DNA from: a virus
Taxonomy: Duplodnaviria > Heunggongvirae > Uroviricota > Caudoviricetes
Reading direction: 5' to 3' (one strand)
DNA: 40,856 nt
IMG/VR virus record: IMGVR_UViG_2561511241_000004
Location: 1-40,856 of that record
The number at the start of each line of letters is the position of its first letter. Within the stretch, counting starts at the first letter, position 1. The translations under genes were made by a program, and so were the position numbers. Under the pieces are notes generated by a model. That model was not told the DNA's origin, searched no databases, and saw only the letters and a program-made list of their open reading frames with translations. Shown here in pieces: positions 7,049-11,829 of the stretch.

Positions 7049-7468
7049 CTATGATGCGTTTTGTGCTTTCTTTTTACGGATTTCTTCGTAGATCATATTG
7101 TAATACTGTTTTTTCTCTTCAAGAGTTTTTAATAAGTTATCCGCTTCACTTTCTGGCAGTTCGTCTAAGAGATCTAAAAAAATACGTTGTCGTGGCGTTA
7201 GAACCCTTGTTTCATAACTGGAGGCTGTGTTCGTTGATGATGAAACGATACCATCCATCCATCCCCGGGGTAACCCAAAGGACTCTTCGATAATCTCCAC
7301 CATATCATCAGCGATCCGTTTTTTTCCCTTTTTCCCCTCTGGGTACAACATTCTTGATACATAAGAAGGCTCGCGCCCGATCTTTCTGGCCACGTTAACC
7401 GCTTTACCATCGCATTTCTCATCACGAATTTTGATGAGTTGCTGTCGTCTAAATTCATATTTGTCCAT
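7049..7468 (-). CDS. prophage repressor (HTH DNA-binding protein, cI-like role)
   Basis: Divergent from the cro-like gene across an operator-rich spacer; start at 7468 (MDKYEF...) has no SD and sits 7 nt after a TATTAT -10, consistent with a leaderless transcript; the ORF track extends to 7522. Confidence 0.65.
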   Translation of the reverse strand: MDKYEFRRQQLIKIRDEKCDGKAVNVARKIGREPSYVSRMLYPEGKKGKKRIADDMVEIIEESFGLPRGWMDGIVSSSTNTASSYETRVLTPRQRIFLDLLDELPESEADNLLKTLEEKKQYYNMIYEEIRKKKAQNAS

Positions 7469-7487
7469 AGGTAAATAATAGATGCGA

Positions 7488-7540
7488 TTACCGCAAGGTA
7501 AACAACCTGCGGGTATTGACATTTGTTTACCTGTGGGTAT
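7488..7540. promoter_or_regulatory. OR-like tripartite operator with rightward promoter (TTGACA -35 at 7516-7521)
   Basis: Three TTACC-N4-GGTA(A/T) sites at 7488-7501, 7504-7517 and 7527-7540 overlapping the -35/-10 of the cro-like gene. Confidence 0.5.
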
Positions 7541-7568: not shown

Positions 7569-7850
7569 ATGGAAGAATTAAGAATATTTCTCAATTCTCT
7601 TTCGTCAGATGAACAGCGTATGTTTGCATGCGAGTGTGGTACCAGCATCGGTTATCTAAGAAAGGCATTGAGTAAAGGTCAAGTGTTAGGGGCATCGTTA
7701 TGTGTCCTTATTGAGCGAGCCAGTAATGGTGAAGTTACACGTCAGCAACTAAGGCCTTTTGATTGGATGAATATTTGGCCCGAGCTGGAAGATACCAAAA
7801 CGTTAACACAACCACTTTCTAGGAGCTTGATTCATGAAAATCAAGCATGA
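7569..7850 (+). CDS. Cro-like / YdaS-family HTH regulator
   Basis: 93 aa, first rightward gene after the operators; AAGGAG RBS; HTH-like segment GTSIGYLRKALSKGQ. Confidence 0.6.
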   Translation: MEELRIFLNSLSSDEQRMFACECGTSIGYLRKALSKGQVLGASLCVLIERASNGEVTRQQLRPFDWMNIWPELEDTKTLTQPLSRSLIHENQA

Positions 7851-8259
7851 ACACATCCGCATGGCGATGAATGCCTGGGCGCATCCGGACGGTGAAAAAG
7901 TTCCGGCAGCTGAAATAACCAGGGCTTATTTTGAACTGGGTATGACGTTCCCAGAACTGTATGACGACAGCCATCCGGAAGCCCTGGCTCGCAATACCCA
8001 GAAAATTTTCCGCTGGATAGAGAAAGACACCCCTGATGCAGTTGAAAAAATTCAGGCGTTGTTACCAGCGATCGAAAAGGCAATGCCACCTTTGCTGGTG
8101 GCCAGAATGCGCAGCCACAGTTCAGCTTATTTTCGGGAGCTGGTGGAGACGCGGGAGCGACTGGTGAGAGACGCTGATGATTTTGTCGCAGTGGCAATCG
8201 CCGGTTTCAATCAGATGAACCGTGGTGGCCCGGCAGGAAATGCTGTGGCAGTACATTGA
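7834..8259 (+). CDS. YdaT-like protein (Rac prophage family)
   Basis: 141 aa beginning MKIKHEH and ending ...VH, as recollected for Rac YdaT; overlaps the end of the cro-like gene. Confidence 0.55.
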   Translation: MKIKHEHIRMAMNAWAHPDGEKVPAAEITRAYFELGMTFPELYDDSHPEALARNTQKIFRWIEKDTPDAVEKIQALLPAIEKAMPPLLVARMRSHSSAYFRELVETRERLVRDADDFVAVAIAGFNQMNRGGPAGNAVAVH

Positions 8260-8330
8260 CTGACAATAGCCATATCGAATCGCTTCCGGCAACTCGTGAG
8301 TAAAAAGATTCGGTATCAGAAGAGGTGAGT

Positions 8331-9401
8331 ATGGCTAACGCCTGGCTCAGATTATGGCATGACATGCCAAATGACCCTAAGTGGCGAACAATTGCCAGGG
8401 TGTCAGGGCAGCCAATTGCAACAGTGATGGCAGTGTATATCCACCTCCTGGTGAGCGCGTCACGAAATGTCACGCGAGGTCACATTGATGTCACGACAGA
8501 AGATTTGGCAAGTGCGCTCGACGTGACAGAAGAGGTAATTGATTCAATTTTGCAGACGATGCAGGGGCGGGTACTTGATGGTGATTTAATCACTGGATGG
8601 GAAAAACGCCAGGTGCTTAAAGAGGACAACGGCAATATTTCGCAAACCGCAAAATCTCCTGCAGAGCGCAAGAGGGCGCAGCGAGAGAGGGAAAGAAAGC
8701 GGGAACAAAATGGCGATTGTCACGGCGCGTCACGAAATGTCACGCACATGTCACGACGAGTCACGACAGATAAAGATACAGATAAAGATACAGATCAAGA
8801 AGATCAAAACACTATGGTCCATGGCGTAAAAAACGCCACGAACCAGGCAGGGGATGTTCAGACCGTCAATCTTGGTCAGCCAGCAGGCACGACACCGGAA
8901 GCCGATTCAGCGTATGCGCTGAAAGCCGATTCGGGCGCTGTGCAGCAGGTGATGACCGCAAGGCCGGAGCAATCACACCAACTGCAGCAGCCTGAAGCCG
9001 ATTCCGCCATTCAGCGGGAAGCCGATCGGGTAGTCCCGGAAAACACCGGGCAGTCTGTGGGACGAGTGGATTATCCGGATGTGTTCGAACAGGTCTGGCG
9101 GGAGTACCCGTTGCGTGCCGGGGCAAACCCGAAGAAATCCGCTTTCAGTGCCTGGAAGGCCAGATTACGCGAGGGGGTGCCACCAGAGGCAATGCTGGAT
9201 GGCGTGAGGCGTTACGCAAGATACCTAGCGGTTACCGGGAAAACGGGAACGGAATTTGTTCAGCGGGCGACGACGTTTTTTGGACCGGACCGGAATTTTG
9301 AAAACCCCTGGTTGCTCCCGGTAAGCGGCACGAACAACCAGCGTTGTGTGAATCATATTTCTGAACCGGATACCGAAATTCCGCCGGGCTTCAGGGGGTA
9401 A
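8331..9401 (+). CDS. replication initiation protein: replisome-organizer-like N-terminal domain fused to a DnaT-like C-terminal domain
   Basis: N-terminus WLRLWHDMPNDPKWR; C-terminus ends ...SEPDTEIPPGFRG, like the C-terminus of E. coli DnaT; contains iterons; AGAGGTGAG RBS. Confidence 0.65.
   Translation: MANAWLRLWHDMPNDPKWRTIARVSGQPIATVMAVYIHLLVSASRNVTRGHIDVTTEDLASALDVTEEVIDSILQTMQGRVLDGDLITGWEKRQVLKEDNGNISQTAKSPAERKRAQRERERKREQNGDCHGASRNVTHMSRRVTTDKDTDKDTDQEDQNTMVHGVKNATNQAGDVQTVNLGQPAGTTPEADSAYALKADSGAVQQVMTARPEQSHQLQQPEADSAIQREADRVVPENTGQSVGRVDYPDVFEQVWREYPLRAGANPKKSAFSAWKARLREGVPPEAMLDGVRRYARYLAVTGKTGTEFVQRATTFFGPDRNFENPWLLPVSGTNNQRCVNHISEPDTEIPPGFRG
8459..8495. repeat. iteron cluster 1: four GTCAC(G/A) copies at about 10-bp spacing (candidate ori element)
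   Basis: Copies at 8459, 8469, 8479 and 8490, inside the replication gene. Confidence 0.5.
8719..8810. repeat. iteron cluster 2 (five GTCACG copies) plus A-rich tandem repeat (gataaagataca x2, gatcaagaagatcaa)
   Basis: Copies at 8719, 8729, 8739, 8750 and 8760, then the AT-rich repeat; resembles the lambda ori layout inside O. Confidence 0.5.
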
Positions 9402-9441: not shown

Positions 9442-9867
9442 GTGGCAAAAGTTTTTACACAAGAAGAGCGGGAAAAAATTAAAGGGCAGGTTGTTGAACT
9501 TGTACGCCAGAGTGGGCGCGAGACGTTACGTCAACTGGAAGCCAAGACAGGTGCGACAAGATATCTGATGAGCGTTCTCGCAAGAGAGCTGGTTGCCAGC
9601 GGCGATGTATACAACTCTGGTTACGGGTTATTCCCGTCTGAACAGGCTCGTAAGGACTGGCAAAATGCCCGCAAAAAACTCTCAAGGGCAAAGCTGAAGA
9701 AAAAAACATCTGTGGTTGATCCGGACCTTATCTGGTCGTTACCAGACGGAGAAATACGCCGCTATGACAGGCGTCTGAACATAATCTGTCGCGAGTGCCG
9801 GAATAGTGAAGTTATGCAGCGTGTACTGGCTTTCTATCAGGGGAATTTTCAGGAGGCGGCGCAGTGA
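9442..9867 (+). CDS. hypothetical protein (141 aa, GTG start)
   Basis: AGGAGG RBS 5 nt upstream of the GTG; no helicase-loader or AAA motifs seen. Confidence 0.5.
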   Translation: MAKVFTQEEREKIKGQVVELVRQSGRETLRQLEAKTGATRYLMSVLARELVASGDVYNSGYGLFPSEQARKDWQNARKKLSRAKLKKKTSVVDPDLIWSLPDGEIRRYDRRLNIICRECRNSEVMQRVLAFYQGNFQEAAQ

Positions 9868-10064
9868 GCAGGATTGACTACCAGGAATTGGCTGCTGCTA
9901 ACGCTTCCCTGGCTGATGTACGGGCGGTGGCGTTTAACGACCTTTGCGCGGCGTTTGCCAGGCACGCAAAAGTTGCAGGACTGGATGATGCCGATACCGT
10001 AACGCTTAAGGAAGTGACAGAAGCATTGTTGCATTGTGCGGAACAGATTCGCGCGCCTGAATAA
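9864..10064 (+). CDS. hypothetical protein (66 aa, GTG start, GTGA overlap with the upstream gene)
   Basis: AGGAGG RBS 7 nt upstream; translationally coupled. Confidence 0.4.
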   Translation: MSRIDYQELAAANASLADVRAVAFNDLCAAFARHAKVAGLDDADTVTLKEVTEALLHCAEQIRAPE

Positions 10065-10159
10065 TTAAATTTAGTGTTGTAAATAAAATTTAATCCTTAA
10101 CCGGAGGGATTTCTGCACCCTCAGAACATCAGGAGGCCGCCCGAAAGGGCGGTAATGAA

Positions 10160-10342
10160 ATGCGAAAGTTCAGAATAATTATTGAAACGGGAATAGCTGG
10201 TGGAGATTTTGAGGATGTATTCGAAGTGGATGATGGTGCGACACCAGATGAAATACAGGACGAAGCAAAAGAAATTTTCTTTAACTACTGCAATTACTCA
10301 TATCACGAAATAAAAGATGAGGAGGAAGAACAAAATGGCTGA
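10160..10342 (+). CDS. small highly acidic protein (60 aa, about 18 D/E)
   Basis: Preceded by a GNRA-loop hairpin; strongly negative net charge. Confidence 0.5.
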   Translation: MRKFRIIIETGIAGGDFEDVFEVDDGATPDEIQDEAKEIFFNYCNYSYHEIKDEEEEQNG

Positions 10343-10511
10343 TTTTGGTTCAACTAAATACAACGTCAGTTTTGAAGAATGGCATGAACTGTTAATGGAC
10401 TATGCAGAGTTACGCGGTGGAAGTGCCGCTGATGCTGAAGCATGGCGTTATGACTACGAAGCAGGAAAAACTCCGGTCGAAGCATATTGTGATGAGTGGG
10501 GCGATGAATGA
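10335..10511 (+). CDS. small highly acidic protein (58 aa, about 15 D/E)
   Basis: GAGGAGGAAG RBS; overlaps the upstream stop and the downstream start (ATGA). Confidence 0.5.
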   Translation: MADFGSTKYNVSFEEWHELLMDYAELRGGSAADAEAWRYDYEAGKTPVEAYCDEWGDE

Positions 10512-11023
10512 GCGAGATTAATTATCAGGAAGGACATGAAACGGCAGGGCAGGCAAAACCAGTTGCATGGCGATATCGCTACGTGAAAAAAGGCATTACG
10601 GACTCACAGGGGGAGCCGTGGGTTGGTGACTGGAAATATGTACCGACAAAAGAGGATTGCAACGACAGGCCGAGCTATGAAATTCAGGCGTTATTCACTG
10701 CCCCGCCTGTGCCACTGACATCAGAAGGACTGGTTAAAGCCGTGCGCTTTTATGAACAGGTAAAGCGTGAGAATCCACCAGTCGAAACAGGAGCATGGAA
10801 AGATGCTGTTGATTGGGTACTCAAAGAGGCCTGCAGTGCTGTCATTCTGGGTAAAGCCGACAACCCACCAGCTTCCGGCAATCAGGTTAGCGAATTAACA
10901 ATGTGGGTTAAACGACTGGTCAGCCAACTGAAAAAAGCCAAGCCGGACTGCAAATTACCGGAGAAGGCGATGGACTACCTGAAGCGAAACGGACTGATAA
11001 GCGTGGAGGATGTTTTACGGTGA
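10508..11023 (+). CDS. hypothetical protein (171 aa)
   Basis: Translationally coupled to the acidic pair; no family recognised. Confidence 0.55.
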   Translation: MSEINYQEGHETAGQAKPVAWRYRYVKKGITDSQGEPWVGDWKYVPTKEDCNDRPSYEIQALFTAPPVPLTSEGLVKAVRFYEQVKRENPPVETGAWKDAVDWVLKEACSAVILGKADNPPASGNQVSELTMWVKRLVSQLKKAKPDCKLPEKAMDYLKRNGLISVEDVLR

Positions 11024-11162
11024 GATAGTAAATGCATGTAATGAGACGGGGGGGGTGAGGGGAGGCTTCATCTGGATAGATCTTGCACCGTTCATATGTT
11101 ATAAAAACAATTCCTACTGTTAAATCGTTGTTTGTTTTAGTTGCTATATTTAAGGAGTGAAT

Positions 11163-11420
11163 ATGCAGTTAATTGTTGATTACCCAGATCATAACATTTA
11201 TTCATCTTTTGTGGATGCGGATGCTGAACTTCGAGAGTTAAATGGTGGGGCAGTAGTTGTAATAACGGTAAAAATACCTCTTACTAGCACATCGGAACAG
11301 TTGTTTAATAAATACACTTGCGGGGAAAGTCTTCGTATTAAATTGAGGAATGGCGATGAATGGAAAATGTATTTCGTTATGCTTGATGGAGGGCGCTATA
11401 TATTTTCCTCGCACCTGTGA
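11163..11420 (+). CDS. hypothetical protein (85 aa) in AT-rich DNA
   Basis: Strong AAGGAG RBS 5 nt upstream of the ATG. Confidence 0.5.
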   Translation: MQLIVDYPDHNIYSSFVDADAELRELNGGAVVVITVKIPLTSTSEQLFNKYTCGESLRIKLRNGDEWKMYFVMLDGGRYIFSSHL

Positions 11421-11673
11421 TAAAAATGATGAGCCGAGACTGTATTTACGGGACGCTGAGAGAATACCATAGAAAAGCTTATCTAACTTAAGTAGAATTG
11501 CTGCGGGTGCTTGAGGCTATCTGCCTCAGGCATGAACACCAAAGGCAGATAGAGAAAAGCCCCAGTTAACATTACGCGTCCTGCAAGACGCTTAACATTA
11601 ATCTGAGGCTCAATCTATGAACGGCAAATCTAGGTTAGCCTCTTACGTGCCGAAAGGCAAGGAGAAGCAGGCT

Positions 11674-11829
11674 ATGAAGCAGCAAAAGGCGATGTTAATC
11701 GCCCTGATCGTCATCTGTTTAACCGTCATTGTGACGGCACTGGTAACGAGGAAAGACCTCTGCGAGGTACGAATCCGAACCGGCCAGACGGGGGTCGCTG
11801 TCTTCACAGCTTACGAACCTGAGGAGTAA
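11674..11829 (+). CDS. hokD: Hok/Gef-family type I toxin (HokD/RelF-like, 51 aa)
   Basis: MKQQKAMLIALIVICLTVIVTALVTRKDLCEVRIRTGQTGVAVFTAYEPEE; AGGAGA RBS; in-frame upstream extension from 11617; mRNA 5'/3' complementary elements present. Confidence 0.8.
   Translation: MKQQKAMLIALIVICLTVIVTALVTRKDLCEVRIRTGQTGVAVFTAYEPEE

Follow-up and report, generated by a model that had tools for sequence, protein, structure and literature searches.

Introduction

In phage lambda, the origin of replication is annotated within the initiator gene O, where iterons are followed by an A/T-rich region, and ren comes after the replication genes. Genetic analysis of hybrids between lambda, phi80, and 82 assigned origin specificity to the N-terminal part of O and the coupling to the helicase loader P to its C-terminal part. 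For lambda O, the C-terminal domain is treated as the putative P-binding partner (PMC12661323). Here we describe the replication initiator of a lambdoid prophage, a 356-amino-acid (aa) protein encoded at 8331..9401 (+) of IMG/VR virus record IMGVR_UViG_2561511241_000004. The whole 40,856-nucleotide (nt) stretch of this record was analyzed and is called the window below. The initiator gene has the same internal arrangement as lambda O, and a Ren-like DUF977 gene follows it. Unlike lambda O, the protein has neither Phage_rep_O nor Phg_2220_C and no P gene beside it, and in place of the lambda O ending, ...LDLTNTDWIYGVDL, it carries a tail of the type found at the end of the host primosomal protein DnaT.

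Several described modules share parts of this design. The same tail terminates the initiators of the Rac prophage (YdaU-YdaV), Gifsy-2 (O-DnaC), and Shigella phage 75/02-Stx (gp15-gp16), and 75/02 gp15 additionally has its C-terminal domain in common with the window initiator. However, these three modules contain a DnaC-like AAA+ loader immediately 3' of the initiator, which the window phage lacks, and their N-terminal domains (DUF1376, Phage_rep_O, and unassigned) are unlike that of the window protein. Phage LLS has a single initiator gene, no helicase or loader, and a DnaT-type tail, as does the window phage, but the body of its O protein consists of HTH_36 and Phg_2220_C, as in the initiator of locus L064. 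The SPN1S/epsilon15-like type likewise has the tail and lacks a loader, and differs by a genuine PF17948 domain of DnaT.

The chromosomal protein DopC was reported to join a lambda-O-like N-terminus to a DnaT C-terminal motif (HHpred against 2ru8) and to form a pair with DopE (Brezellec et al., 2017; PMC5509034). The match was described for the C-terminal region of DnaT, and a covariation of tail and loader was not discussed (PMC5509034). DopC has been domesticated on the chromosome, contains no iterons, and has the P-like DopE as its partner, whereas the window initiator has iterons and no loader. In a survey of lambdoid phages, 34 of 314 contained only an O-type initiator, and their replication "is not yet understood"; the tail was not mentioned there (Zheng et al., Genome Res 2025; PMC12315714).

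Results

The Initiator Resembles DnaT in Its Tail Only

The C-terminus of the initiator, NQRCVNHISEPDTEIPPGFRG (aa 336-356; 9336..9398, +), was compared with the end of E. coli DnaT (MG1655; last 21 residues). Fourteen of the 21 positions were identical, including all of the last seven, and the extreme C-terminal signature of DnaT, ...PDxxIPxGF[RK]G, was present. The protein ends ...SEPDTEIPPGFRG directly before the stop codon. This tail is acidic and proline-rich, and sequence comparison together with an AlphaFold2 (AF2) model predicted it to be a disordered short linear motif.

The preliminary description of this locus had proposed a DnaT-like C-terminal domain. The matching ending held, whereas the domain did not, since Pfam, NCBIfam, phmmer, and HHalign all restricted the match to the tail. 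With phmmer against PDB sequences, aa 333-356 alone were aligned, to the chain ends of DnaT (6aep, 2ru8, and 9zbt_D), and a search with DnaT as the query aligned DnaT residues 159-179 only. The NCBIfam DnaT model NF002770 covered the same aa 333-356 (profile positions 156-179) with 18 bits against a cut-off of 201, while the Pfam DnaT model PF17948, which corresponds to DnaT residues 89-154, gave no match to the initiator at E<=1. In HHalign, the family of C-terminal domains (aa 236-332, tail removed) reached a probability of 0.3% against DnaT 84-155, compared with 92.6% (E 4.7e-7) when the tails were included. Furthermore, neither NF002770 nor phmmer found a counterpart in the initiator of the N-terminal oligomerization domain and the acidic PriB-binding linker of DnaT (residues 1-83). 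The likeness between the two proteins is thus confined to the last 21 residues with their invariant IPxGFRG core. DnaT's N-terminal domain, its PF17948 bundle, and the adjacent dnaC are without counterpart in the window initiator, which is twice as long as DnaT and has iterons inside its gene.

The tail was kept in homologues of the window family at 52-57% identity, in which the preceding linker had drifted, and the core [IV]PxGF[RK][GDS] was invariant in DnaT orthologues, even in very divergent lysine-rich ones. Because the tail is retained in diverged homologues with a varying linker and is invariant in DnaT orthologues, these comparisons indicate that it is a real feature under selection.

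The Window Contains No Helicase Loader

Pfam and PHROG scans of the open reading frames (ORFs) at 9442-11023 found no loader. A P-loop scan ([AG]xxxxGK[STN]) of ORFs of at least 70 aa across the whole window also returned none, and hidden Markov models (HMMs) of DnaC-like and P-like loaders gave no match to these ORFs even at E<=10. The annotated homologous prophage of E. coli ETEC1749 was likewise without a loader. These results confirmed the preliminary view that no helicase-loader gene lies downstream of the initiator, and extended it to the full 40.8 kb. Since no loader is encoded, the phage must depend on the host machinery for helicase loading, as had also been proposed.

Tail Type Covaries With Loader Type

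The loaders next to tail-bearing initiators were then compared. The IMG/VR samples consisted mostly of near-identical E. coli prophages, and the counts from them are not independent events. Among the matches listed, 100 tail-bearing loci had enough downstream sequence, of which 52 had a DnaC-like AAA+ gene immediately 3' and 48 had no loader and usually DUF977 or DUF1064 instead; a P-like loader was found in none. Sorted by loader, all 73 initiators located 5' of DnaC-like loaders ended IPPGF[RS]G, while the tail was present in 0 of the 77 located 5' of P-like loaders, all of which ended ...E[AT][LM]DCxDWxDD. A set with one genome per species contained 43 initiators with the window-type N-terminal domain. 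In this set, loaders were detected from stop-to-stop segments with an iterated HMM, which catches P-like genes overlapping the 3' end of the initiator. None of the P-linked initiators (0/20) had a DnaT-type tail, and the four tail-bearers, from Shigella, Superficieibacter, Scandinavium, and Enterobacter, had a DnaC-like loader or none.

The same was seen in close relatives of the window protein. E. coli O157-type proteins share the window N-terminal domain at 85% identity together with the iteron-encoded motifs, but differ by a true PF17948 domain, an 'LDC.DW' tail, and a following PF06992 P-like loader. Homologues from Yersinia and Serratia have both the N- and C-terminal domains of the window protein, and then an 'LDCxxW' tail and a PF06992 P-like loader. 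Because homologues with P-type loaders have this lambda-O-like tail, the DnaT-type tail appears to mark a DnaC-type loading route.

The DnaC-like gene came and went on otherwise similar backgrounds. In locus L077, a DnaC-like gene follows an initiator 98% identical to that of the window, and mEp460-type bodies were found both with and without one. In relatives that have it, the DnaC-like gene is located between the initiator and DUF977; as judged from these arrangements, it is an optional cassette. The tail is not a substitute for the loader, because about half of the tail-bearers, including the L077 sibling, carry their own DnaC-like loader. The phage DnaC-like protein was 50% identical to E. 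coli DnaC, and for this reason a loader-less phage plausibly uses the host DnaB-DnaC. In the host, dnaT lies directly 5' of dnaC with a gap of 2 nt, and the O and DnaC-like genes of Gifsy-2 are arranged alike.

Some further features of these modules were recorded. In P-type modules, the initiator gene overlaps by its last 77-92 nt with the start of the P-like ORF, which is read in another frame (L131, 3950-4038; L134, 3257-3333; L136, 3929-4020), so that the region encoding the 'LDCxDW' tail is dual-coding. In DnaC-type modules, the initiator and loader genes are only a few nucleotides apart. Two beta-proteobacterial homologues, L154 and L156 (Pseudothauera and Castellaniella), lie 5' of distant DnaC/IstB-like loaders and share the ending ...HGG[FY]xxR[DN]YGxGGxL, which may be a third tail type for a third loader lineage. 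A stretch 'EGQxxA(L/Y)(S/T)xA(K/R)' was conserved in the phage DnaC-like loaders (E. coli dnaC in L130, 1739-2476, compared with L002, 2989-3729, and L008, 2563-3312); as a lead only, the tail might dock on this stretch.

The Tail Is Found on Unrelated Initiators

The tail was found on at least 10 initiator architectures of enterobacterial phages, including Rac YdaU, Gifsy-1/2, 75/02-Stx, mEp460, SPN1S, and LLS. Of 50,697 phage records searched by tblastn with the 20-residue tail, 47 gave a match, from phages of Escherichia, Shigella, Salmonella (Gifsy-1/2, SPN1S, SPN3UB, and PAT1), and Klebsiella, with Rac YdaU included. Most of the matches fell at the C-terminal end of an O-like or replication protein, the exceptions being a few unannotated or 'hypothetical' records; two Salmonella draft-genome records represented the host's own gene for primosomal protein 1. 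A degenerate DNA pattern for PDxxIPPGFRG-stop was found at at least 120 loci in IMG/VR. The O protein of phage LLS (L346, PQ299149, 34213-35067) ends in the variant ...PVDTKIPEGFRG (KIPEGFRG). Because this variant escaped both the IPPGFRG pattern and the 20-residue tblastn search, the tail is commoner than the counts indicate.

The tail-bearing proteins differed in both of their domains. Their N-terminal domains belonged to Phage_rep_O, DUF1376, HTH_36, and organizer-like types or were unassigned, and their C-terminal domains included Phg_2220_C, true DnaT PF17948, and the 'YPxxFE..W' domain of the window protein, among others. In the SPN1S type, the C-terminal domain was a genuine PF17948 bundle (E 1e-38 to DnaT 84-179). 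The tail was seen only in phages of Enterobacterales, the clade that possesses DnaT and DnaC. A contig attributed to Sphingomonas sp. NPDC019816 in GTDB (L173) encoded an initiator of the enterobacterial type whose tail was degenerate (...EKPAGFS), together with a DnaC-like loader that reached E 8e-121 with the DnaC-like HMM; this probably reflects contamination or recent transfer. Some of the tail proteins are already labelled 'Primosomal protein I' or 'DnaT-like ssDNA-binding domain-containing protein' in databases, and a search of the literature for 'IPPGFRG' returned no paper on the tail motif.

A Putative Origin Lies Inside the Initiator Gene

About ten direct copies of GTCAC(G/A) with a phasing of 10-11 nt were located in 8459-8765, a segment that holds 9 of the 21 GTCACG copies of the whole window and one GTCACA. 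The first cluster (8459..8495, +) contains GTCACG at 8459, 8469, and 8490 and GTCACA at 8479, spaced by 10, 10, and 11 nt. The second (8719..8765, +) contains five GTCACG copies at 8719, 8729, 8739, 8750, and 8760, spaced by 10, 10, 11, and 10 nt. A single inverted GTCACG lies between them (8522..8527, -). By base composition and repeats, an A/T-rich, purine-skewed stretch adjoining the iterons (8766..8824, +) is the presumed unwinding element. The GC content reached its minimum of 36-40% at 8750-8824, with an AT skew of about +0.5, and the A/T-rich part of the putative origin contains the 12-mer ACAGATAAAGAT twice in tandem (8766-8789), which encodes DKDT repeats. The copy number of this 12-mer differs among near-identical homologues, with one extra copy in L077 and a DTDTDTDTD run in P0030.

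In homologues, the N-terminal domain was conserved together with 'VT' motifs encoded by the iterons. This co-conservation and the layout of the gene suggest that the N-terminal domain binds the GTCACG iterons.

Domain Layout of the Initiator

The AF2 model was built on a 20-sequence alignment and had a mean predicted local distance difference test score (pLDDT) of 53, with confidence in the N-terminal domain only. According to AF2, Foldseek, Pfam, and conservation, the protein begins with a helical, winged-helix-like folded domain, presumed to bind the iterons (aa 1-95; 8331..8615, +), in which pLDDT was 71-92 over most of aa 11-90. Foldseek against PDB gave weak MarR-type winged-helix matches for this domain, all at E>1. 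The search with the initiator model returned no match at E<1 and no DnaT, a result that is uninformative for the C-terminal domain, whose model had low confidence. The replisome-organizer character ascribed earlier to the N-terminus was compared with two family models. PF09681 (Phage_rep_org_N) spanned profile positions 1-118 of 121 at E 0.12, with 12.8 bits against a cut-off of 23.3, and TIGR01714 spanned its whole profile at E 0.016, with 15.4 bits against a cut-off of 49.8; the matches remained below threshold, although they covered the profiles and the Prokaryotic Genome Annotation Pipeline (PGAP) name of a 98%-identical protein is 'phage replisome organizer'. The window-type N-terminal domain was kept at 49 loci in many proteobacteria.

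A basic helix at aa 110-127 (AF2) is followed by a disordered linker (aa 128-245; 8712..9065, +), in which pLDDT was about 30 and homologues differed in length by large indels. From AF2 and invariant columns, a small three-helix C-terminal domain with the motif YPDVFEQVWREYP...KK.A..AW was assigned to aa 250-302 (9078..9236, +); its helices (250-258, 267-281, and 285-302) had pLDDT 53-67. The final 50 residues of the protein, which include the tail, were disordered in the model.

Identity and Genomic Setting of the Initiator Gene

The coding sequence is intact from the ATG at 8331 to the stop codon at 9399-9401, and a Shine-Dalgarno-like AAGAGG (8320..8325, +) was read from the sequence 5 nt before the ATG. 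It was identified from the ORF list, the sequence, PHROG 3729, and the PGAP name. PHROG 3729 ('replication initiation protein') matched end to end at E 3e-257, and the nearest protein cluster has 5,786 member sequences, which makes the initiator gene a common prophage gene. PHROG 1701 matched aa 122-356 at E 9e-63; its label, 'DnaD-like helicase loader', is a family name, and Pfam DnaB_2 and DnaD gave no match to the protein. Pfam Phage_rep_O (PF04492) and Phg_2220_C also gave no match, while these domains were picked up by the same tool in Gifsy-2 O and L064.

The gene belongs to a lambdoid prophage and is part of its early-right operon. By domain scans and comparison with an annotated relative, the upstream segment 7049..8259 (mixed strands) contains the immunity and early-regulatory genes, namely a repressor (7049-7522, -), a Cro/YdaS-like gene (7569-7850, +), and a CII/YdaT-like gene (7834-8259, +). 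That relative, a prophage of E. coli ETEC1749 with 93% identity (L001), is annotated from the integrase through the tail genes, with the initiator as 'phage replisome organizer'. In L001, a relBE toxin-antitoxin pair is annotated beside the immunity region (7957-8428), and relBE-like ORFs were not seen in the matching part of the window. A 70-aa ORF with a hydrophobic core at 11617-11829 of the window has the same position as a hokD type I toxin annotated in L001 (13057-13212).

Directly 3' of the initiator, at the position that ren occupies after P in lambda, lies the DUF977/LygF/Ren-like gene (9442..9867, +; Pfam, PHROG, and phmmer). Its product matched Pfam DUF977 (E 8.5e-30), the 'Ren-like' exclusion protein family PHROG 142, and, weakly, lambda Ren by phmmer (E 2.9e-5). 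This gene was considered as a cryptic loader and rejected, being Ren-like and also present 3' of DnaC-like genes in relatives. In L001 it is a frameshifted pseudogene (10824-11250). Together with the final 60 nt of the initiator gene, the DUF977 gene forms a mosaic block with about 90% DNA identity to mEp460-type phages, the initiators of which are otherwise unrelated to the window initiator. The next ORF, of 66 aa (phrog_27745; 9864..10064, +), has no loader features, and a DUF7167 protein is encoded among the further downstream ORFs.

Discussion

The explanation we lean towards is that the window protein is a lambdoid-type origin-binding initiator whose DnaT-type tail brings the host DnaB-DnaC to the opened origin. 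The N-terminal winged-helix-like domain would bind the phased GTCACG iterons within its own coding sequence, and the A/T-rich stretch beside them would unwind. The linker and the small helical domain would then be followed by the disordered 21-residue peptide, the core of which, [IV]PxGF[RK]G, is the motif at the end of DnaT. In this scheme, the C-terminal end of a lambdoid initiator would specify its helicase-loading partner, with DnaT-type tails pairing with DnaC-type loaders and lambda-O-like 'LDxxxW' tails with P-type loaders. In a loader-less phage the tail would recruit the host DnaB-DnaC, either directly or through a host adaptor. We infer that the tail is a protein-docking peptide with DnaC or DnaB-DnaC as its partner, and we rank the candidate direct partners in the order of DnaC or DnaB-DnaC, the host DnaT bundle (by tail exchange), and PriA.

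Several points weigh against this explanation. A recent cryogenic electron microscopy (cryo-EM) paper proposes DnaT's N-terminal domain, and not its tail, as the recruiter of DnaB/DnaC. Removal of residues 154-179 from DnaT mildly lowers its affinity and cooperativity for single-stranded DNA (ssDNA), which points to another possible role of the tail (PMC4132743). Closely related E. coli prophages make up most of the covariation samples, which lack phylogenetic independence, and the species-level set alone (0/4 compared with 20/39) is not significant. The tail codons adjoin the loader gene, and the association could therefore be partly linkage through mosaic recombination. Moreover, the covariation makes the tail the counterpart of the P-binding tail and does not by itself make DnaC its partner; DnaB, PriA, and DnaT are possible partners as well.

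The preliminary description had suggested that the phage recruits the host PriA-PriB-DnaT restart primosome. In such a route, the tail would mimic DnaT and recruit PriA, with or without PriB, and the origin would be fired through the restart primosome and then DnaB-DnaC. The occurrence of the tail in both the initiator and a preprimosome component agrees with this, as do the absence of a loader, the conserved hydrophobic interface through which DnaT contacts PriA in the cryo-EM paper, and the PriA-dependent replication of phage Mu, phiX174, and pBR322 (PMC4129139). However, the 2026 cryo-EM work used the 84-153 crystal structure to fit the DnaT unit that docks on PriA, and PriB contacts DnaT at its acidic linker; neither part has a detectable homologue in the initiator. 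The tail itself was seemingly not modelled in these structures, to judge from the methods. Neither the main text nor the preprint nor the methods name the DnaT residues in contact with PriA, and a later PriA paper adds nothing further on the DnaT tail. In addition, half of the tail-bearing initiators have a DnaC-like loader of their own, and the tail is gone exactly where the loader is of the P type, which would be unexpected for a general PriA signal, though a C-terminus can hold one motif only. With the PriA- and PriB-contacting parts of DnaT absent and the tail coexisting with DnaC-like loaders, we consider recruitment of the restart primosome unlikely.

An improbable variant is that the tail docks on the three-helix bundle of host DnaT by tail-exchange oligomerization. 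The initiator would thus nucleate a filament of DnaT at the unwound origin, with DnaB-DnaC following in a DnaT-dependent but PriA-independent manner. A 2019 crystal study of DnaT 84-179 by Chen reportedly announces 'a new oligomerization mechanism' in its title, in which the tail is reported to touch an adjacent bundle, and the SPN1S-type initiators carry the whole C-terminal domain of DnaT together with the tail. The loss of ssDNA-binding cooperativity upon deletion of residues 154-179 also fits (PMC4132743). What docking on DnaT leaves unexplained is the O157 type, in which initiators with a PF17948 bundle and P-type loaders have no tail, and the retention of the tail in phages with their own DnaC-like loader.

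The tail might also act on DNA or in self-assembly, for example in cooperative ssDNA binding at the opened origin, and not dock on a host protein. Compared with DnaT 84-179, DnaT 84-153 shows about two-fold weaker binding to dT30 and a lower Hill coefficient (PMC4132743). Yet the tail (SEPDTEIPPGFRG) is acidic, proline-rich, and predicted to be disordered, it occurs on initiators without any DnaT-type ssDNA-binding bundle, and its covariation with loader type would not be predicted, which makes such a role very unlikely. It is least likely of all that the module without a loader is the remnant of a decaying prophage and its tail a hitch-hiking recombination leftover without present function: in relatives, a DnaC-like cassette does separate the initiator from DUF977, and the tail DNA and the DUF977 gene do travel as one mosaic block, but the virion-isolated phages Tritos, HannyBb, mEp460, and LLS share the loader-less arrangement, O-only modules are recurrent among lambdoid phages (PMC12315714), the tail protein sequence is kept across diverged lineages and DnaT orthologues, and the initiator ORF is intact.

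What is new here is the reading of the tail, from sequence patterns, as a coupling peptide for the DnaC route that is common to the initiator and DnaT. Recruitment of DnaB-DnaC by the tail can be carried over to the host itself, as a more tentative proposal that we regard as possible. The [IV]PxGF[RK]G tail would then be the element by which the preprimosome is passed to DnaB-DnaC, and the dnaT-dnaC pair would derive from a phage module of an initiator and a DnaC-like loader. The same peptide would engage DnaC-type loaders in enterobacterial phages with or without a loader gene of their own, which would explain 'O-only' replication.

Two questions become testable now. One is helicase loading in the roughly 10% of enterobacterial lambdoid phages with an O-type initiator only (PMC12315714). 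The other is how the PriA-PriB-DnaT preprimosome recruits DnaB-DnaC, which papers from 2024-2026 call unknown (PMC11087952, PMC13377028). The pattern singles out a motif of 7-20 residues for peptide-binding, mutagenesis, and structure-prediction work, and the tail type provides a simple annotation marker for the loader route of a lambdoid phage. For the host, the comparisons suggest that dnaT-dnaC was derived from a phage module, and the tail may be the link of DnaT to DnaB/DnaC.

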